64,000 nucleotides of DNA from the NCBI GenBank assembly GCA_028275025.1, contig JAQCNM010000031.1, positions 2,078 to 66,077 of the forward strand. Direction: 5' to 3'. The notes beneath the pieces are model-generated. The model ran no database searches and was not told the DNA's origin. It saw only the letters and a list, made by a program, of their open reading frames with translations. A program made the translations under genes and the position numbers. Each line of letters opens with the position of its first letter. Within the stretch, counting starts at the first letter, position 1. This document shows, piece after piece, positions 1 through 42,424 of this stretch. Origin of the DNA: Halovenus sp. (GTDB lineage Archaea > Halobacteriota > Halobacteria > Halobacteriales > Haloarculaceae).

Positions 1-2578
1 GCTCGGCCACGATGTCGAACAGCTCCCGTGCCTCCGCCTCGTAGGGCAGCTCCACGGTGACCCGGGTCGTTCCGTCCTCGGCGACGACTCCCTGTAGGGC
101 GGCGCCGTACTCGGTGAGTGTCGCGAGCAGTGACTCCCCGACGGTCACCTCGAGTAGACACTCCCGGTCGCGCGCGACGATACAGGTCGCGGACTCGACC
201 TCCGGGTCGTCACGAACCCGGTCGAGAACGGCATCGGGGTCGACGTTCGTCGCCGAGAGGTACAGCTCCGCACCGCCACTCCCCCGGCGGTCGATTCCAG
301 CGGACTCGATGCGTGCGCCGTCGGTCGAGAGCCGGGTAAAAAGCAGGTCGCGGTCGGCAACGGCGAACTCGAGTTCGACAATCCTCGTCGCGTCGAGGAT
401 ACGACCCCGCTCGACGGCGTTGACGGCGTTTGCGCTCGCCCGCCCGAGCGCCTCAAGTACCACCCGCTCGCGCTCGTCGAGCGCGTCGGCGTCTTCTGCA
501 CAGACAACGAGCACCCCGTAGGTCGTGTTCTTGTACACGAGCGGCACCGCGACGAGCGCGTCGACAGTGGCTGCGAGCCGGTCCCAGGCTCCCTCCCCGG
601 ACAGCCCCTCGGTGGTGAGCAACTGCGGCTCCCCGTCCCGGTAGCTGTTGCCGAGCGGGTCGGTCCCGTCGAGCGGGAACGACCAGTCACCGGCCGGTAG
701 ATCCGCCGCGCCCGCCCACGCTGTCGGCGAGAGCTGCTCGCTGGCGACGTCGGGTCGACAGACCATGGCGAACGCGTACGGCTCCACCCCGGCGAGTTCG
801 CGGACCACACCTCGTTCGAGCTCCTCTCGAGTCGTCGCCTCGACGAGCACCTCGACGGTCCGGCGAACGAGCCCGTTGACCCGGTCGAGCACCCGTTCGG
901 TTCGTTCCTGTGCCAGTCGGACGGTCCGCTCGCGTTTCGCCCGGGTGCAGGCGGCCGCCGCACTGGTCGCGAGCAGGGCGAGCAGGCGCTGGTCGGCCTC
1001 GTCGAACGCCGCTTCCTCCGTCGAACAGATACTCATCGTCCCGCGAACGCCCGCCGGGTAGTACATCGCCGAGCCCACGTCGTCGGGTCCCCGGTCGGTC
1101 TCGCGCAGGCTGTCGACCACGGTCGGCTCGCCGGTGGCGAACACCTCCCCGGGGAACCCCTCCTCGACCGCGTACACCGGTCGGTCCCCGAGTGACTCGC
1201 GGGCTCGCCTGCTCATCGCCGCCGGGGTGAGTGTCTCGGTTTCGGGGTCGTACAGCCGGAACACGCTCATCTCGAATCCGAGCAGCTCTCGGGCCGCGCT
1301 CACCGCGATCTCGGCGACCTGCTCGGGGTCCTTTGCCTGCATGAACGACCGGGTCGTCTCCAGCAGCCCCGAGAGCCGGCGCTGGTGTTCGGTGCGTGTG
1401 CTGATATCTCGGCCGACACCGACCACACCGTCGACCGCGCCGCTTGGGTCACGCAGCGGTGCACCGGAGAACTCGTAGGGGATCTGCTCGCCGTCTGCGG
1501 TCTCCAGTGTCGCCTCGACCGAGAGTGACTCGCCGTCACGCACCCGGTTCGTAGCCGCTTCGATACGCTCGCGGTCACCGTCGGCGACGAACTCCCACGG
1601 GGACATCCCCTCGAGACTCGCCTCCTCGTACCCGGTGACCGAGACCAGCCGCTCGTTCCAGCGCACCAGCGTCCCGTCGTCCCCGAACGCGTACAGCGGG
1701 TCCGGCAGACTGTCGATGAGGCTCTCGGTGAACGCCTGCTGTTGTTCCAACTCGGTCTGGTAGGCCTGTTGTTCGAGGAGGTAGTGGAGCCAGTTCGTCA
1801 GCAGTTCCACGAACGTCCGCTCGCGCCTGCTGAACGGCTCCTGCCGGGGCTGTGAGTCGACAAAGCAGACAGTACCGTACTCCCCTCCCGCGACCTGGAC
1901 TGTCGTCCCGAGATAGCACTCCAGCCCGTCACGCTCGTATGCGGGGTCCGCGGGGCGCTCGGTCCCGGCCGCCGCAACCGCCATCGGCCGGTCGCTGTCG
2001 AGGGTGTGCCGGCAGTACGTCGCCGACAGCGGTCTCGTTGTTCCCGCAGACAGCGCCTCCGGGTTGTCCCCGTTCCGGGTAACCGCCGTGACAATCTCGT
2101 GGGTGCCGTTCTCGACGTGTGCGAGAAAGGCGTGACTCGTCCCGAGACGCTCTGCTCCGACCTCGAGTATCCGGTCCAACTTCTCGTCGACACTCCGGTC
2201 GTTGTCTGTCGTGACCTCGTGGAGTGCCTCTAGTGCGCGCTCGCTCGCCCCGAGCTCTCGGTCGTCGGCACCGACAACCTCCCTGAGGACGACCGCTGTG
2301 CCGCCGTCGGTCGGGTAGACAGTCCCGGCGAGCCGCCGGCCGTCTACGCCGTGGGTGTCGAACTGCTGTTCCCGGCGTTGTTCCCTGGCGGTTCGATACC
2401 GGGCCACCGCCGTGTCACCCAGCGCCGCATCGACGTGCTCGCCGAGGATACCCCCGCGCTCGACACCGAACAGCTCCGGGATGTCCCCGCCGACTGCGGT
2501 CACGACCCCCGCCTCGTCTGTCTGGAGAAAGCCCTCGCTCTCGCCGGTCGCTCGCTCGGTCTGACGTGGCTCGCTCAT
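1..2578 (-). CDS. PAS/GAF sensor, bacterio-opsin activator (Bat)-like transcription regulator; 3' end runs off the window
   Basis: Absent from the ORF track because it is truncated by the window edge. Read by hand from ATG 2578: GAF (GLECYLGTTVQVAGGEYGTVCF), PAS (SLIDSLPDPLYAFGDDGTLVRWNERLVSVTGY), two more GAF domains, then a BAT-type region (RIVELEFAV...VTVELPYEAEARELFDIVAE). The frame is consistent down to position 2. Confidence 0.85.
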   Translation of the reverse strand, partial: MSEPRQTERATGESEGFLQTDEAGVVTAVGGDIPELFGVERGGILGEHVDAALGDTAVARYRTAREQRREQQFDTHGVDGRRLAGTVYPTDGGTAVVLREVVGADDRELGASERALEALHEVTTDNDRSVDEKLDRILEVGAERLGTSHAFLAHVENGTHEIVTAVTRNGDNPEALSAGTTRPLSATYCRHTLDSDRPMAVAAAGTERPADPAYERDGLECYLGTTVQVAGGEYGTVCFVDSQPRQEPFSRRERTFVELLTNWLHYLLEQQAYQTELEQQQAFTESLIDSLPDPLYAFGDDGTLVRWNERLVSVTGYEEASLEGMSPWEFVADGDRERIEAATNRVRDGESLSVEATLETADGEQIPYEFSGAPLRDPSGAVDGVVGVGRDISTRTEHQRRLSGLLETTRSFMQAKDPEQVAEIAVSAARELLGFEMSVFRLYDPETETLTPAAMSRRARESLGDRPVYAVEEGFPGEVFATGEPTVVDSLRETDRGPDDVGSAMYYPAGVRGTMSICSTEEAAFDEADQRLLALLATSAAAACTRAKRERTVRLAQERTERVLDRVNGLVRRTVEVLVEATTREELERGVVRELAGVEPYAFAMVCRPDVASEQLSPTAWAGAADLPAGDWSFPLDGTDPLGNSYRDGEPQLLTTEGLSGEGAWDRLAATVDALVAVPLVYKNTTYGVLVVCAEDADALDERERVVLEALGRASANAVNAVERGRILDATRIVELEFAVADRDLLFTRLSTDGARIESAGIDRRGSGGAELYLSATNVDPDAVLDRVRDDPEVESATCIVARDRECLLEVTVGESLLATLTEYGAALQGVVAEDGTTRVTVELPYEAEARELFDIVAE

Positions 2579-12701: not shown

Positions 12702-13769
12702 TCACTCGAGGCGGTAGCGCAGCAGGGCCGCGATACCCCCGAGGTTGGCGAGCTGGCGACCGGGGTCGAACTCGCCGGAGAACACGGTCACCTCGCCGCC
12801 TTTCTGCTCTGTCGTCTCGATGATGCTGTCGGCGTCGACGTTCCAGTCACCGTCACCGGAGCGCTCGGCCCGGAGTCGCCCGTCGAGCACGAGCAACTGC
12901 TCGACGGCGCCGTACTCGGCGGCCCGTGCGACCTGCTCGGGCCCGTAGGCGACCTTCGCCCCCTCGGCGATGCGGTCGGTCAACTCGTCGATCAGCGCCG
13001 ACTCCTCGGCGATACGTGTCTGGCGCTGGATCTCCTCGACGGCACCCCGCTTGAGCACCTCGTGGACCCCGCGGTCGCCGACACCGCTCGTGTCGACGGT
13101 CGTGATACTGGCGTCGACATCGGGCCCCTCGGACTCGATGTACCCGAGTGCGTCGGTCTTCGTGAACCCCGGGCCGGCGAGCACGATGGCGTCCACGTCG
13201 AGCCGAGAGAGCACCGCCGCGAGCTCCTCGAACAGCTGCGTCCGGGGGCGTGCGTACTCACCCTTCCCGGTCGGCCCGCTGATCGCAGCACGCTCCTCGG
13301 TGCCGTACTGTGCGACAGTGTGGACGTACGCCTGCCCCTCCTCGACTGTGGCAACAGCCACGTCGGGGTTCTCTGTCGCCTCGACAGCCGCCGCCAGACG
13401 GTCGTACTGGTCGGGTTTCCAGTGTTTCTCGATCTCGAGTTCGGTGTGTTGCTCGACGTTTATCGTGTGGTGCTGGCCGAGTTGGTCCTCGCGCGAACAC
13501 GCCTCGATGACGCCGCCGACCCGGAGCCGGTTGGCGAAGCGGGCGAACTCGACGCTCTCGACCCCGAGTTCCACCCAGAGGTGCTCGCGCTCGCCGCCGC
13601 TGTCACGCAGTTGGTCGTCGTTGCGCTGGATACGCCGTGTCGTGTCACCGGCCACCCGGTCGTCCGGTTCGACGACGTGTGAGAGATGCCACAGATCGTC
13701 GAGACTCTCCGGGACGACCGTCAGCCGCTCTCTGTCACCCTCGACCTGCATCCGGTCGGCGATGCGCAT
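12702..13769 (-). CDS. pelA: mRNA surveillance protein pelota
   Basis: Motifs [46 protein letters not shown]. Confidence 0.95.
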
Positions 13770-35846: not shown

Positions 35847-37487
35847 TTATTGGTATCGCCCGCGGCTCTCGATATCGCGCAGACAGTCGAGCACCGCGGC
35901 CGCACCGACCTCTCGGTAGGCCGTCTCCGCGGCCTCGACTAGCCTGTCGGCGTCGGACTCGGTGCCCGCGAGGCTCTGTGCGAACACCTGCAGGTCCATC
36001 GCGTGGTCCTCGGGGTCGTCACTGTGGTAGCCAAGTCCGAAGTCGATGAGAAACACCGTCGGGTTGTTTTGCTCCGTTGCTCTCCGGACACGGACGTTCC
36101 GTGTCGTCGGGTCACCGTGGACCAGCCCCGCACCGTGGAGTCGGGCGAGGTGACGGGCGACCTGCCGGACACGGGACTCTGTCACGGCCGCCCGGAGTTC
36201 GCAGTCACCGACGTGCTGGAGACGGAGTGTCGTCCTGCCGAGGTCGATATCACGGACGAGCGGTGTCGGCACACCGGCCCGGCGTGCCTCGCTCGTCACG
36301 CGGGCCTCCGCCCGGGTCCGCTCGCGGCGCAACCGTTCGTCGAGCTCCGGATGCCGGTAGACCCGGGGCTGTCGGTTCTTTGTTACCTCTGTCTGCCCGA
36401 CGGTGACCGTCGCCTCCGCACCCTGTACTGCCTCGCCGGTGTCCAGAGTGGACCCTGTCGGGCTCTCCACGCGCCAGGTGACCGGCACCTCGTCCGGGCG
36501 AAAGTCCGAGTCGATAGCCGACTCGGTGAGCGGGACGGTGTCACCGGCCTCGTACATCGCCGCACCGAGAACGGCGATCATCCCGGCGTTGTCACGCAGA
36601 AACCGGTTCTCGGGGGCGAAAAACGCCGCCCCGCGCTGCTCGCACATACCGGCGAGCATCTCCTGGAGACGGTCGTTCTGTCCGACACCACCGCCGAGCA
36701 CGAGTTCGTCACCGCCGGTCAATGCCAGTGCCCGCTCGCTGACCTCGGTGAGCATCCCGAACATCGTCTCCTGGAGCCCGTGACAGACGTCTTCGACCGG
36801 CTCTCCATCGTCGATGGCCTCCTTTGCGGCCGAGGAGATGCCGGCAAACGAGAGGTCCATCCCCTTTACCACGTACGGCAGGTCGAGATACGACCCCTCG
36901 CGGGCGGCGCGTTCGACCTTCGGACCGCCGGGGTGGGCCCAGTCGAGGTGGCGGGTGAACTTGTCGATGGCGTTGCCGACACCGGTGTCCATTGTCTCCC
37001 CGAGCACGCGGTACCGGCCGTCGCGGTAGCCGAGCACGTGGGCGTTCGCCCCGCTCGCGTTCAGACAGACGGGGTCGTCGAACCCCGAGCGGTGACGACC
37101 GACTTCGAGGTGGGCGACCATGTGGTTCACACCGACCAGCGGCACGTCGAGACGCTGTGCGAGCGCACGGGCACTGGTCGCGGCCAGGCGCAGACACGGG
37201 CCCAGCCCCGGTCCCCGGGAGAACGCCACGGCGTCGACCGGCGTGTCTCCAGTCTCCTCGCCCCCGCCGGTCCCGAACTTCTCACGGGCCCGTTCGAGTG
37301 TCCGTTCTATCACCACCGGGAGCTGTTCGCTCATGTGTTCGGCGGCCTCACGGGGGTGGATACCGCCGCTGTCCGGGGTGTAGGCCTCGGTCTCTATCTC
37401 GACGCTGTCGCTCGCGGCGTCGTAGACGGCGGCGCTCGCGGCCCAGGCTGTCCCCTCGATACCGAGTACACGACACCCCCCGGTCAT
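35847..37487 (-). CDS. kae1: Bifunctional Kae1 t6A synthase / Bud32 kinase
   Basis: Kae1 motifs LGIEGTA, GGIHPREAAEH, VNHMVAHLE, DNAGMIA. Kinase motifs QGAEA, VHGDPTTRN, LIDFGL. Confidence 0.96.
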   Translation of the reverse strand: MTGGCRVLGIEGTAWAASAAVYDAASDSVEIETEAYTPDSGGIHPREAAEHMSEQLPVVIERTLERAREKFGTGGGEETGDTPVDAVAFSRGPGLGPCLRLAATSARALAQRLDVPLVGVNHMVAHLEVGRHRSGFDDPVCLNASGANAHVLGYRDGRYRVLGETMDTGVGNAIDKFTRHLDWAHPGGPKVERAAREGSYLDLPYVVKGMDLSFAGISSAAKEAIDDGEPVEDVCHGLQETMFGMLTEVSERALALTGGDELVLGGGVGQNDRLQEMLAGMCEQRGAAFFAPENRFLRDNAGMIAVLGAAMYEAGDTVPLTESAIDSDFRPDEVPVTWRVESPTGSTLDTGEAVQGAEATVTVGQTEVTKNRQPRVYRHPELDERLRRERTRAEARVTSEARRAGVPTPLVRDIDLGRTTLRLQHVGDCELRAAVTESRVRQVARHLARLHGAGLVHGDPTTRNVRVRRATEQNNPTVFLIDFGLGYHSDDPEDHAMDLQVFAQSLAGTESDADRLVEAAETAYREVGAAAVLDCLRDIESRGRYQ

Positions 37488-38710
37488 CAGTTTCCGTCGA
37501 GTTTGTCTGCCAGCGTGGGCACGAACGTTCCGACGTCGGTGACCATCCCGATCGCCTGCGCGCTCCCGCGGTCGACTAGCTGTGTGACGGTCCCGGGGTT
37601 GATATCGACACAGACGGTCTTTGTTGTCGAGGGGAGACAGTTACCGACCGCCACGGAGTGCAGGAGCGTCGCAAGCATCAACACGAGGTCGGCCTCGTGG
37701 GCCTGTTCACGGATGGCGTTCTGTGCCTCGACGGCGTCGGTGATGGTGTCCGGTAACGGGCCGTCGTCACGGATCGACCCCGCGACGACGTACGGCACGT
37801 CCCGCTGGACACACTCGTACATCACGCCCGACTCGACGACACCCTCCTCGATCGCGGGCTCGATACCGCCGGCGCGGATGACCTCACTTATCGTATAGAT
37901 GTGGTGTTTGTGCCCCTTTCGTGGGTGGTCGAGTGTCTCGGTGTCGACCCCGAGCGAGGTGCCGTACAGGTCACGCTCGATGTCGTGGACGGCGAACCCG
38001 TTGCCCACCGAGAGCCGGTCGACGTACCCCTCCCGGACCATCCGGGCGAGGTCCTCCCGTGCGCCGGTGTGGATGACCGCCGGCCCGCAGACGGCGAGCA
38101 CGTCCCCGCCCGCCCGCCGGGTTTCGGCGATCGCATCGGCGATCTTTCCGATTGTCGACTCCGAGGGCCGCTCCGAGGAGACACCACCCTGCATGAACCC
38201 GAACGCACCCTCCCGGCCACGGGGTCGCTCTGGCGGTTTGACACGGATACCCCGGTTCCCCGTCACGACCAGATCGCCCGCCTCGACACTGCTGAGAATC
38301 TCCGTGTACGCCCGTGGCTCCGCCGGGTCGACGATAACCGCACAGTCCATCTCGATATCTTCGACCGAGAGCCACCCCCCCTCGAACCGGATATCTGTCG
38401 GGTGGTTCGTCGTCGAGTAGAACTCCCGCGGAACGACACTGTCCGCCGGTGCGGGCTCCAGAACAACGTCTCTGGGGTCGACCGGGTTCGCCCCGTTCTG
38501 GTGGAGTTCGTGGACGATCGACTGGAGGTGTGCCTCGTCGTCGGCCGCGACGACCAACCGGGCGTACGACTCCGCGGTCTCGTGACGGCCGATCTCGAAC
38601 TCCTCCACCTCGAACGAGCCGTCCATATCCATGATGAGCCCGAAACAGGTCTCCAGCATCCCCGAGTCGATGATGTGTCCCTCGAGCTCCACGGTCCGGG
38701 ATGTGGTCAT
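37487..38710 (-). CDS. TIGR00300 family (LOR/SDH-like) ornithine cyclodeaminase
   Basis: Motifs LEGHIIDS, FYSTTNHPT, IEMDC, FGFMQGGVSSE, GNGFAVHDIE, AGSIRDDGPLP, KTVCVDINP. Confidence 0.88.
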   Translation of the reverse strand: MTTSRTVELEGHIIDSGMLETCFGLIMDMDGSFEVEEFEIGRHETAESYARLVVAADDEAHLQSIVHELHQNGANPVDPRDVVLEPAPADSVVPREFYSTTNHPTDIRFEGGWLSVEDIEMDCAVIVDPAEPRAYTEILSSVEAGDLVVTGNRGIRVKPPERPRGREGAFGFMQGGVSSERPSESTIGKIADAIAETRRAGGDVLAVCGPAVIHTGAREDLARMVREGYVDRLSVGNGFAVHDIERDLYGTSLGVDTETLDHPRKGHKHHIYTISEVIRAGGIEPAIEEGVVESGVMYECVQRDVPYVVAGSIRDDGPLPDTITDAVEAQNAIREQAHEADLVLMLATLLHSVAVGNCLPSTTKTVCVDINPGTVTQLVDRGSAQAIGMVTDVGTFVPTLADKLDGN

Positions 38711-38775: not shown

Positions 38776-38781
38776 TTTATA
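38776..38781 (+). promoter_or_regulatory. TATA box of the ilv leader transcript
   Basis: TTTATA ends 27 nt before ATG 38808, the spacing typical of leaderless haloarchaeal mRNAs. Confidence 0.65.
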
Positions 38782-38807
38782 CGGTCGCCAGGATGCATTA
38801 CTGATAG

Positions 38808-38873
38808 ATGCAGACCGCTGCCGGCACTACGACAGCCCTGGCAGCCAGTCACCTCCTCGTAGGGGCCCGTTAG
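38808..38873 (+). CDS. Putative ilv leader peptide (uORF), MQTAAGTTTALAASHLLVGAR
   Basis: 21 codons ending CTC CTC GTA GGG GCC CGT TAG. The stop lies in the hairpin AGGGGC-CCGTTA-GCCCCT (38861-38878), 65 nt upstream of ilvB. Confidence 0.6.
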   Translation: MQTAAGTTTALAASHLLVGAR

Positions 38874-38938
38874 CCCCTCTGTTACTCACTTCTCGTCCGG
38901 CCGGTATCGCGCGTCGACCCCCCAGCCAACCCCACACA

Positions 38939-40753
38939 ATGAGCGAACCAGCACCAGTTCAACAGACAGACGAGGAATCGTCAGACAGAACAGAGGAAGA
39001 TATCCACAGAGACACACCCGAGGGTGTGTCACACGGAGCGTCACCGGACCCGGACGTCACGACCGGTGCGGAGTCGGTCGTCGCCGCGCTCCGGACGGCC
39101 GGTGTAGAACTCCTGTTCGGTGTCACCGGTGGCGCGATACTGCCGGTCTACGACGCCCTCTACGAGCACGACCAGATAACCCACATCACGATGGCCCACG
39201 AGCAGGGGGCGGTCCACGCCGCAGACGCCTACGGTATCGTCACCGGGGAACCCGGTGTCTGTGTGGCTACCTCGGGCCCGGGTGCGACGAATCTCGTGAC
39301 CGGCATCGCCGACGCCAGCATGGACTCCGACCCGCTGGTCGCGCTCACCGGTCAGGTGCCGACCGGGTTCGTCGGCAACGACGCCTTCCAGGAGACCGAT
39401 ACGGTCGGGATAACACAGCCGGTCACGAAACACAGCAGCTTCGCCGACGACGAGTCGACGGTCGGTGCGGAGGTTGGAACCGCCTGGGCGCTGGCCGACG
39501 CGGGCCGACAGGGCCCCACCCTGGTCGACCTCCCGAAAGACGTCACGGGGGCGTCGACCGACGAGCGGCCGGGCGAGCCGGAGACACCGGACACGTACGA
39601 CCCGCCGACGACCGCGGAGCCGGTGATGGTCGAAGCGGCCGCCGAGACGCTTGCTACCGCCCGGCGACCGCTCGTACTCGCCGGTGGCGGGGTGATAGCG
39701 GGCGAGGCGACCACGGAGCTTCGGCGACTGGCCCGGGAGTACGGTCTCCCGGTCGTCACGACGATGCCGGGAACCGGCGCGTTTCCGCAGACAGACCCAC
39801 TCTCACAGGGTATCGCCGGGATGCACGGCACCGGCTACGCGAACATGGCGGTCTCGAACTGTGACGCTATGCTGGCGGTCGGGACACGGTTCGACGACCG
39901 TCTCACCGGCGACATCGAGACGTTCGCACCAGACGCCGAGATCGTCCACGTCGACATCGACCCCGCCGAGATAAGCAAGAACGTCGAGGCCGACTACCCG
40001 CTCGTCGGGGACGCCGGGGTCGTTCTCGACCAGCTGCACCGGGCGATACCGGGCCGGCCACCGGCTGTGGAGTGGCGTGACCGGTGTCGGACCTGGCAGG
40101 ACGAGTACCCGCTCGAGTACGAGACACCGGCGGACGAACCGCTCAAGCCACAGCACGTCGTCGAGCGGTTCGACACGGTCACCCCGGCCGACACCATCGT
40201 CACGGCGGGTGTCGGCCAGCACCAGATGTGGGCCTGGCAGCACTGGACGTTCACCGAACCCCGGACGTGGGTCACCTCCCACGGTCTCGGCACGATGGGG
40301 TACGCGGTGCCGGCCGCGATCGGTGCGAAACTCGCCGCCCCCGACCGCGAGGTTGTCGCGTTCGACGGCGACGGCTCCTTTCTGATGACCGCACAGGAGC
40401 TGACAGTCGCGGTCCGGGAGGAGTTAGACCTCACGGTGGTCGTTCTCAACAACGAGGCGGTCGGGATGGTCAGACAGTGGCAAGACGGGTTCTACGACGG
40501 TCGCCGCACGGCCTCGGAGTACCCCTGGGTGCCCCAGTTCGACGCAGTGGCGGAGGCGTTCGGTGCAAAGGGGCTACGCGCCGAGACGTACGAGGGGCTG
40601 GAGGAGTGTATTCAAACGGCCCGTGCATACGACGGACCGGCGGTGATCGACGCGGCTATCGACCCCGAGGAGAACGTCTATCCGATGGTGCCGGGCGGGG
40701 GCGACAACGCCCGCTTCGCGCTCGACAGCGACCAACTGGAGGGGTTGCAGTGA
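38939..40753 (+). CDS. ilvB: Acetolactate synthase large subunit
   Basis: Motifs FGVTGGAILP, HEQGAVHAAD, TSGPGATN, GMHG, GVGQHQMW, GDGSFLM. Confidence 0.96.
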   Translation: MSEPAPVQQTDEESSDRTEEDIHRDTPEGVSHGASPDPDVTTGAESVVAALRTAGVELLFGVTGGAILPVYDALYEHDQITHITMAHEQGAVHAADAYGIVTGEPGVCVATSGPGATNLVTGIADASMDSDPLVALTGQVPTGFVGNDAFQETDTVGITQPVTKHSSFADDESTVGAEVGTAWALADAGRQGPTLVDLPKDVTGASTDERPGEPETPDTYDPPTTAEPVMVEAAAETLATARRPLVLAGGGVIAGEATTELRRLAREYGLPVVTTMPGTGAFPQTDPLSQGIAGMHGTGYANMAVSNCDAMLAVGTRFDDRLTGDIETFAPDAEIVHVDIDPAEISKNVEADYPLVGDAGVVLDQLHRAIPGRPPAVEWRDRCRTWQDEYPLEYETPADEPLKPQHVVERFDTVTPADTIVTAGVGQHQMWAWQHWTFTEPRTWVTSHGLGTMGYAVPAAIGAKLAAPDREVVAFDGDGSFLMTAQELTVAVREELDLTVVVLNNEAVGMVRQWQDGFYDGRRTASEYPWVPQFDAVAEAFGAKGLRAETYEGLEECIQTARAYDGPAVIDAAIDPEENVYPMVPGGGDNARFALDSDQLEGLQ

Positions 40754-41409
40754 GCCGCGGTGAACTCCCCGGCCCGCCACCCGACGACCGGCTCCACCCG
40801 GATGGACGTCGCAACGGCCAGGGTATCCGTGTCGACCCGGCGGCCGAGGCCGAACACCCGCCCGAGCGGGCCGTGCTGTCGGCGCTCGTCACCCACGAAC
40901 CGGGTGTGCTGGCGGAGATATCCGGGCTGTTCAGCCGCCGGCAGTTCAACATCGAGTCACTGACCGTTGGCCCCACCGTCGACGACGACCTCGCCCGGAT
41001 GACGATCGTCGTCGAGGAGCCGCGACCGGGTATCGACCAGACAAAGAAGCAACTCGAGAAGCACATCCCGGTTATCTCGGTGCGGGAACTCGCGGGTAAT
41101 GCCGTCCAGCGGGAGCTCGTCATCCTCAAGATCGAGGGTGACAGGCCGGCGCAGGTCAACGCCATCACCGACATGTACGACGGGCGGACACTCGACGCCG
41201 GCCCGGAGACGGTCACCGTCGAGCTAACGGGTAATCGGAGCCGTATCGACGACGCCATCGACGCCTACAGCCAGTTCGGGGTTCGTGAGCTCGTTCGAAC
41301 GGGGCACGCGGCACTGGCCCGCGGCGAAGCCCCGACCGCACAGGTCAGCCAGCCAAACCAGGCCCCGACCGAGGCACAGGTCGCCACGGAGGCGGTGAGT
41401 GATGACTGA
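40750..41409 (+). CDS. ilvN: Acetolactate synthase small subunit
   Basis: [26 protein letters not shown] and ELVRTG. GTGA overlap with ilvB. Confidence 0.95.
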
Positions 41410-42424
41410 CACCGGCGGCGGATTCAACAGCACAGTGTACGACGACGCCGACGCCGACCCGTCGGCACTGGACGGGCAGACCGTCGGGGTAATCGGCTAC
41501 GGGAGCCAGGGTCACGCCCACGCCCAGAACCTCGCCGACAGCGGTGTCGACGTGGTGGTCGGGCTTCGCCCGGGGTCGGCCTCGCGTCCCGAGGCGGAGG
41601 CCGACGGACTCCGGGTCGCCACACCGACCGCGGCCGCCGCGGAGGCCGACATCGTCGCGATGCTGATACCCGACACGGCACAGCCTGCGGTCTACGCGGA
41701 GCTCGAACCGGAGCTGACCGCCGGCGACACACTCCAGTTTGCCCACGGGTTCAACATCCACTACGGCCAGATAGAGCCGCCACCGGAGATCGACGTGACG
41801 ATGGTCGCGCCAAAGGCCCCCGGTCACCTGGTGCGTCGGACGTACAGGCGTGGTGAGGGGACACCGGGGCTGCTCGCCGTCTCCCGGGACGTGACCGGCC
41901 GGGCACACGGTGAGGCGCTGGCCTACGCACGGGCGATTGGCTGCACCCGGGCGGGCGTTATCGAGACGACGTTCCGCGAGGAGACAGAGACCGACCTGTT
42001 CGGCGAGCAGGCGGTGTTGTGTGGCGGGGTGACAGAACTGGTCGAGGCGGGGTTCGAAACGCTCGTCGACGCCGGCTACACACCGGAGATGGCCTACTTC
42101 GAGTGTCTCAACGAGCTGAAACTCGTCGTCGACCTGCTGTACGAGGGGGGACACGCCGAGATGTGGGACTCCGTCTCCGACACCGCCGAGTACGGCGGGT
42201 TGACCCGCGGCAGTGCGGTTGTCGACCGCGAGGGGATGGACGAGATACTCGCCGACGTCCAGTCGGGTGCGTTCGCCCGCGAGTGGATCACGGAAAACGA
42301 GGCGAACAGACCGGCCTACCGCCAGCACCGGCGGGCCGAACAGACCCACCAGATAGAGCAGGTCGGCGACCGCCTGCGCGACCTGTTCGCGTGGGACGAC
42401 ACCGACACGGAGAAGCGGGCGTGA
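41402..42424 (+). CDS. ilvC: Ketol-acid reductoisomerase
   Basis: Motifs [47 protein letters not shown]. Confidence 0.97.

Follow-up and report, generated by a model that had tools for sequence, protein, structure and literature searches.

A comparison of the DNA in front of ilvB, the gene for the large subunit of acetolactate synthase, revealed a leader element that is real and order-wide in Halobacteria: a leaderless upstream open reading frame (uORF) in which a rare valine codon, GTA, runs into a hairpin holding the uORF stop. The best explanation of this conserved mini-gene, and one that we consider probable, is a transcription attenuator under ribosome control, responding to the level of charged tRNA-Val and, in most relatives, of charged tRNA-Ile as well. 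As judged from sequence, the element is very likely a sensor of the amino-acid or tRNA charging state, and termination is probably its output. Bacterial-style control by a valine-sensing leader, which is how the element likely works, was not found described for archaea in the open literature. No description of the element itself was found there (subscription papers and bioRxiv supplements were outside the scope), and the word “attenuation” is absent from a 2026 review of archaeal termination (PMC13675443). Translational control of transcription termination in archaea is posed as a hypothesis in the available text of PMC8116511 and PMC11616081. The element provides a natural, conserved test case in the genetically tractable Haloferax volcanii, where its start and 3' end already stand in public tables under “hypothetical protein”. 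Single synonymous changes can probe the sensing and factor depletion can probe the terminator. It would account for the way in which haloarchaea adjust the synthesis of branched-chain amino acids and two tRNA synthetases.

The ilvB leader and its conservation

The features below were located in the window, the whole stretch of 64,000 nucleotides of Halovenus sp. DNA that was analyzed. Leader positions were numbered from the G of GTA (38859 = 0), and the assignments of ilvB, ilvN, and ilvC passed the NCBIfam cut-offs.

37487..38710, minus strand: divergent ornithine cyclodeaminase-family gene (TIGR00300), occupying the place of leuA in relatives
38776..38781, plus strand: TATA box TTTATA, with a spacing that fits a leaderless start at the uORF ATG 38808
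38808..38873, plus strand: leader uORF of 21 codons, 3' end CTC CTC GTA GGG GCC CGT TAG
38813..38850, plus strand: 5' hairpin within the uORF, a locus-specific pairing in ilvB leaders (z -1.9 here)
38853..38861, plus strand: Leu-Leu-Val control codons, the conserved sensor being GTA at 38859-38861
38861..38878, plus strand: hairpin with covariation, core GGGGC/GCCCC, arms AGGGGC (38861-38866) and GCCCCT (38873-38878), holding the uORF stop TAG (38871-38873)
38861..38938, plus strand: -1 frame without stops that continues into ilvB, probably left over from a leuA-to-ilvB bridge ORF, with no leuA upstream
38877..38898, plus strand: tract poor in G and rich in C/T, a candidate site of loading or pausing during termination
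38904..38909, plus strand: conserved G(T/C)A(T/C)CG motif, about +45 from GTA
38913..38917, plus strand: predicted 3' end of a short leader transcript, placed by position from the H. volcanii transcript end and without a T run
38939..40753, plus strand: ilvB, acetolactate synthase large subunit (TIGR00118), start +80 from GTA
40750..41409, plus strand: ilvN (TIGR00119)
41402..42424, plus strand: ilvC (TIGR00465)

The coordinates bore out the features that the first-pass annotation had described at this locus, namely a TATA box spaced for a leaderless ATG at 38808 (the H. volcanii orthologue, HVO_1509, is also leaderless with a TATA box), a 21-residue peptide ending Leu-Leu-Val-Gly-Ala-Arg before TAG, a 6-bp hairpin around that TAG, which was conserved in relatives with compensatory changes, and a pyrimidine-rich tract behind it. 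GTA was indeed uncommon, making up 7.9% of the Val codons genome-wide and 3 of the 106 in ilvBNC. The pattern GTAGGGGC-N3-7-GCCCC occurred a single time in the window, and none of 100 shuffles contained it. The local hairpin reached -11.2 kcal/mol (z -2.1), and 6 of 200 shuffles were equally good. The whole leader was not unusually structured (z +0.3), so the case was built on conservation rather than on folding energy. The 5' hairpin within the uORF had a mean z of -1.3 across 100 leaders, and the comparison of cognate with swapped halves gave z -5.8, an approximate value because the segment lengths differ.

In relatives, the leader followed one order: TATA, leaderless uORF, GTA-GGG-GCN, stop inside the GGGGC/GCCCC hairpin, G-poor tract, G(T/C)A(T/C)CG, and an ATG near +80. 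The element was present before ilvB in 13 of the 15 Halobacteria families that were sampled with an examined ilvB leader. GTAGGG with its complementary arm was found in 106 of 110 ilvB loci (duplicates included); three of the four misses had no upstream DNA, and the fourth, L055, was a compensatory variant, GTA-CGGGC/GGCCC. Eighteen of 20 further ilvB leaders carried the element, one of them as this variant. The element was absent before ilvB and valS in two basal genomes, G045 and G046. The named related loci were all from Halobacteria, with Halovenus-like records the nearest, and the loci in these counts are kin and not independent. Since the leader-finding pattern contained GTAGGG, its invariance there is partly circular, while the per-locus rate is unaffected. 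In an alignment of 51 sequences, 96.9% of the cells of the 5-bp core stem were paired, three of the five pairs showed compensatory changes, and 0 of 500 shuffles scored as high.

The reading frame was conserved as well. When the ATG was chosen by TATA and promoter score alone, it shared the reading frame of the sensor in 100 of 105 ilvB leaders (110 distinct leaders, 5 of which gave no ATG call), 19/19 valS leaders, and 18/18 ileS leaders. Four of the five out-of-frame picks were an ATG-stop adjoining the in-frame ATG. The distance from ATG to sensor ranged from 27 to 87 nt, the uORF length changed by multiples of three, the upstream peptide sequence was free, and the stop position ranged from +9 to +24. 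Of the three features that the first-pass annotation had proposed to check by alignment across Halobacteria, the uORF and the covarying hairpin were conserved, and the LLVG-x-R-stop motif was not. Twenty pattern matches chosen without regard to gene fell 11 times before ilvB, 8 times before valS, and once before nothing relevant, with a control background of about 0-4 matches per genome; a looser pattern was uninformative, as controls scored above targets. A de novo scan of the Halovenus genome recovered the ilvB leader and missed both valS leaders among the 7 of 33 filtered candidates listed.

Downstream of the uORF stop, the RNA was unstructured (fold z about 0), and the tract, with a mean of 0.9 G and 11.6 pyrimidines per 16 nt in the 110 ilvB leaders, was C-rich rather than U-rich. 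In ilvB leaders, the density of the G(T/C)A(T/C)CG motif at +36..62 was about 30 times that found upstream; the motif also appeared in valS and ileS leaders. Written as G(T/C/A/G)A(T/C)CG, it was found in 86/110 ilvB, 14/29 valS, and 20/20 ileS leaders, one in-gene control window also being high (47/94). The first ATG lay at +68..96 in 94 of 110 ilvB leaders. In most relatives, this +80 ATG opened a short coupled uORF2 with a stop overlapping the ilvB start, and in the window the ATG downstream of the element was the ilvB start itself. The motif also recurred within uORF2 above background (+60..160, ilvB and ileS leaders) and may be a pause signal or a protein site.

The leader transcript and the interval between leuA and ilvB

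Published tables for H. volcanii gave both ends of the leader transcript. In the supplement of PMC4983044, HVO_1509 is listed as a conserved hypothetical protein of 33 aa with TATA at -28 and a leaderless start (transcription start site, TSS, 3 nt before the ATG), and HVO_1508/ilvB has no TSS row; the listed start is thus at the uORF, where the first-pass annotation had expected it. The upstream 70-mer of HVO_1509 ended like the uORF promoters of L319, L321, and L325, and the uORF was 34 codons long in 18 of the 21 loci of genus g30 (script), which together identified HVO_1509 as the leader uORF. The supplement of PMC7237163 lists an intergenic transcript end (TTS) of motif class TTTC 47 nt past HVO_1509 in TEX-treated RNA, with a mean 3'UTR coverage of 4318 versus 252-1006 in seven other rows, and holds no further HVO_150x TTS row. 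The position 47 nt after the stop fell directly behind a TTTTCA-like run 3' of the motif, +58 from GTA, in all 21 g30 loci. A premature 3' end thus exists between the leader and ilvB in the H. volcanii orthologue, to which alone these tables apply. An end before ilvB agreed with the earlier proposal, but it lay about 40 nt beyond the hairpin and not at the hairpin. TTC occurred at +50..62 in only 50 of 110 ilvB leaders. The Gelsinger supplement had no match for these genes, and only antisense rows were seen for them in the part of the Laass table covered. As for translation of the uORF, frame conservation points to yes, while Table 5A of PMC10117724 scores HVO_1509 “no” for Ribo-seq and MS; the same source calls new 5'UTR sORFs reminiscent of leader peptides. 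At the cimA-like gene HVO_0644 of H. volcanii, the tables of PMC4983044 and PMC7237163 give a TSS and then a 3' end 118 nt later.

In the mechanism that we favor, plentiful Val-tRNA would let the ribosome reach TAG and leave, after which the hairpin would refold, and the bare C/U tract and motif would let RNA polymerase stop before ilvB, intrinsically or via aCPSF1/FttA. When charged tRNA is short, a ribosome waiting at (ATT-)GTA would cover the RNA to about +11, melt the hairpin, and stay behind the polymerase, which would read through; a new ribosome would load at the ATG near +80, which is ilvB itself in the window and the coupled uORF2 in most relatives. According to the available text of PMC7261190, an H. 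volcanii ribosome footprint is 27 nt long and extends 11 nt from the A site to its 3' end, so a ribosome at GTA would cover the 5' hairpin arm. Hairpins and T runs terminate transcription in H. volcanii reporters. In the portions of PMC11616081 and PMC8116511 drawn on here, aCPSF1/FttA is described as having a preference for U-rich RNA and a cleavage site 15-25 nt behind the polymerase, and mutual exclusion of ribosome and FttA appears as a hypothesis only. An FttA cut at +58 would put the polymerase near +80; the tract, however, is C-rich. The idea that ribosome stalling controls hairpin formation or termination gained support from the stop-containing hairpin, the rare cognate codons, and the H. 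volcanii 3' end. No antiterminator fold was found: five pairing tests of cognate versus swapped segments in 73 thinned ilvB leaders favored none (z -1.3 to +3.2). A long-range alternative fold was found in the window alone and was not conserved among these 73 leaders. No terminator-like site consisting of a GC hairpin with an immediate U run was found on the plus strand.

The same codon sensing might act after transcription, with the +58 end an endonuclease cut, or with the stalled ribosome controlling mRNA stability or initiation at +80, and we regard this as unlikely. Processing could have produced the mapped H. volcanii 3' end; in archaea, ends left by processing and by termination are found near one another, as the 2026 review cautions in its available text (PMC13675443). 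The placement of the first ATG fits such control of initiation, and the region around the +80 ATG avoided pairing (z +3.2). However, the start was not sequestered by any structure in the 73 thinned leaders, the 3' end belongs to the intergenic TTTC terminator motif class in the PMC7237163 supplement, and the bridge ORF described below is easiest to explain if untranslated RNA is shortened co-transcriptionally.

The -1 frame relative to the uORF was stop-free at +21..75 in 110/110 ilvB leaders; the other two frames were so in 27 and 16. It reached the ilvB start in 123 of 125 loci (7 short loci dropped): 6 directly, 103 through a -1 overlap (35 spacings), 9 within 8 nt, and 5 via a second ORF. 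This open frame was first read as a frameshift and was traced instead to a bridge ORF starting at the leuA stop. The bridge ORF began beside the leuA stop in 111 of the 112 loci with leuA detected (18 more loci had none detected), and interrupting stops occurred in 0/112 loci in its frame versus 43 and 36 in the other frames. Its products are about 85-175 aa long and variable in sequence; Pfam held no family for 7 bridge ORFs or 6 uORF peptides, and none of 12 sequences was present in the protein collection. The bridge ORF is unannotated and crosses an internal promoter (e.g., L076:2660-3001 and L092:2582-3001). Presumably, the transcript ends wherever this RNA is left bare, so the interval stays translatable and leuA ribosomes are relayed across it; unannotated intergenic ORFs can in this way persist only as ribosome carriers.

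The leaderless ATG of leuA was itself out of frame, with a +1 shift into leuA in 63/69 loci and GTT-CTT-CC in 65/69 (L031-L110), a candidate leucine-sensing frameshift. For H. volcanii leuA2 (HVO_1510), a leaderless out-of-frame ATG is reported and translation only without leucine is speculated in the available text of PMC8305020. In relatives, the bridge ORF would carry ribosomes that have finished leuA over the terminator, so that a shortage of Leu (via the leuA +1 frameshift) or of Val/Ile would each open the operon. In the window, the divergent gene takes the place of leuA, and the -1 frame is still open, lacks an ATG, and coincides with the ilvB frame; leuA had no match in the Halovenus genome (78.6% complete). 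The leuA input is lost at this locus. The window ilvBNC is separated from leuA, and no leuB/C/D-sized ORF was recognized directly after ilvC (42424 onward).

The open frame could also mean that a hungry GTA provokes a -1 frameshift by which the same ribosome passes TAG and continues to ilvB, a very improbable reading in our estimate. It draws on the frame being open in every leader and coupled to ilvB in nearly all loci, on its identity with the ilvB frame in the window, and on haloarchaeal leuA and cimA starts, which appear to use +1 shifts. The frame, however, is open far upstream from the leuA stop and is explained without a shift, which leaves no shifted frame conserved independently of other ORFs, and no slippery heptamer was seen by eye. 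Moreover, valS and ileS leaders had no fixed downstream frame (the next ATG fell 8/11/18 times in the three frames in valS and 7/10/3 times in ileS, and 9/27 valS leaders were uncoupled), which argues against frameshifting at GTA. A +1 shift into ilvB was also considered and rejected, as stops block 38/103.

Sensor codons and the genes served

The sensor codons matched the downstream gene. They encode Ile-Val (ATT-GTA) before ilvB, Val-Val before valS, and, in one genus (g30), Ile-Ile before ileS. The codon preceding GTA was Ile in 98 of 110 ilvB leaders (ATT in 74) and Leu in 6, and in the 29 valS leaders it was Val in 15 and Ile in 0. ATT is 8.9% of the Ile codons genome-wide. What was conserved was therefore not the proposed LLVG-x-R, but Val-GTA, usually after Ile-ATT. 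Because the window uORF uses CTC, the most frequent codon for Leu (57%), at both positions of Leu-Leu, and Leu so rarely precedes GTA, leucine sensing here is possible but unsupported. The three bases of GTA were paired in only 70, 41, and 64 of 110 ilvB leaders and in 20, 5, and 2 of 29 valS leaders; these alignments indicate that GTA is kept as a codon and not as part of the stem.

The same element stood before one valS clade in 29/32 loci, and the Halovenus genome has its second copy there, before valS on contig C94 (minus strand, near 13588). Loci of this clade with the GTA-hairpin leader were L199-L229 and L388-L401. The other valS clade had a different leaderless uORF of 7-14 codons containing GTA, mostly GTA-GTA, in 24 of the 26 loci that included a start region (a script identified 23 and visual inspection 1). 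In this other clade (L171-L197, including L189 = C175), the GTA uORF was followed by a variable hairpin, often with TTTTC. Both valS types are present in the Halovenus genome. In genus g30, the ileS leader was built in the same way, its sensor codon specified Ile in 20/20 loci listed, and a second, direct leaderless promoter was also present (L283:35-220; L291-L310); at locus L302, the upstream promoter and uORF start were lost. No such leader was found at ilvD, which had an apparently leaderless start without a uORF (20 listed of 24 loci, L362-L385), at archaeal-type leuS (6 of 7 loci viewed), or at 10 of 11 ileS starts viewed. For bacterial-type leuS, only 8/23 loci were parsed.

The choice of codons also bears on whether the element senses anything. 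A constitutive leaky terminator, or a small RNA or peptide gene, might set the ilvB dosage with no sensing; the “no” for HVO_1509 in the Ribo-seq column of PMC10117724 and the abundant leader RNA in the PMC7237163 tables agree with this. Such an account is very unlikely, however, as particular rare codons have been fixed over their synonyms and change according to which amino acid the downstream gene serves, the upstream peptide varies freely in sequence and length, and the second valS clade has the same GTA in a different uORF. A TnaC-like arrest peptide (…IVGA-stop), responding within the ribosome to a free amino acid or keto-acid, is most unlikely: the last four residues are conserved, but what is selected is the choice among synonymous codons (GTA, ATT), Gly-Ala is dictated by the stem and is replaced by Ala-Gly in ileS, and the stop shifts from +9 to +24.

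Returning to the attenuator, we tentatively suggest a wider scheme, which may or may not hold in full. Attenuation here would be domain-specific, with a ribosome stalled at one rare codon blocking aCPSF1/FttA-type termination without an antiterminator. The device would recur at ilvB, valS, and ileS, each time with the codon suited to the gene, and the bridge ORF would connect it to the leuA frameshift, giving a Leu/Val/Ile OR gate built only from ribosome traffic.

Comparison with known systems

The ilvBN, ilvGMEDA, and leu operons of E. coli have bacterial leader-peptide attenuators. The haloarchaeal element shares with bacterial ilv/leu attenuators a short leader ORF with cognate branched-chain control codons, a premature end before the first gene, and the same target enzymes. 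Unlike them, it lacks an antiterminator hairpin, its stem is not followed by a U run, its stop lies inside the sole hairpin with the 3' end about 40 nt further, and it has a leaderless archaeal TATA promoter and a leuA bridge ORF. Since two defining features, the antiterminator and the stem followed by a U run, were not found, the element was not classed as a classical leader-peptide attenuator. The Met-Trp minigene of Methanothermobacter trpY is likewise an archaeal uORF thought to sense an amino acid; unlike the present element, it has two codons, controls translation of the repressor gene, and has no leader terminator.

In Corynebacterium ilvB-II, a uORF rich in branched-chain codons precedes ilvBNC and attenuation was proposed, according to the available text of PMC10272879; a Corynebacterium ilvB leader is described as having no RBS in the title of a reference. 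That system is bacterial, whereas the haloarchaeal leaders match no Rfam family: no riboswitch, T-box, or other family passed the gathering threshold in the window stretch or in 16 ilvB loci, and the sole match in the window was a chance lncRNA (E 3.3). RF03001 (leuA-Halobacteria) is also a Halobacteria cis-element before a branched-chain gene, and a leaderless uORF containing ATT overlaps it, but it differs in sequence, structure, and gene, being located at a 513-aa cimA-like gene. Identity with RF03001 was rejected, as it scored in 0/16 ilvB loci versus 10/20 cimA-like loci; the main text of Weinberg 2017 (PMC5737381) does not mention RF03001. The cimA-like starts (L113-L140), with or without RF03001, mostly overlapped an out-of-frame leaderless uORF with an ATT codon.

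The leuA2 start of H. volcanii resembles the element in its leaderless ATG and proposed amino-acid sensing, and leuA2 lies directly upstream and feeds the bridge ORF. It differs in using +1 slippage into the enzyme frame, and the available text of PMC8305020 contains neither HVO_1509 nor attenuation. With regard to aCPSF1/FttA termination, FttA prefers U-rich RNA while the tract is C-rich, and the available text of PMC11616081 and PMC8116511 describes no regulated FttA leader. The likeness to leader termination of the Rho or aCPSF1/FttA type lies in the unstructured, G-poor pyrimidine tract, C-rich though it is, that would be bared as the ribosome leaves at the stop, and in the T-rich 3' end in H. 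volcanii.
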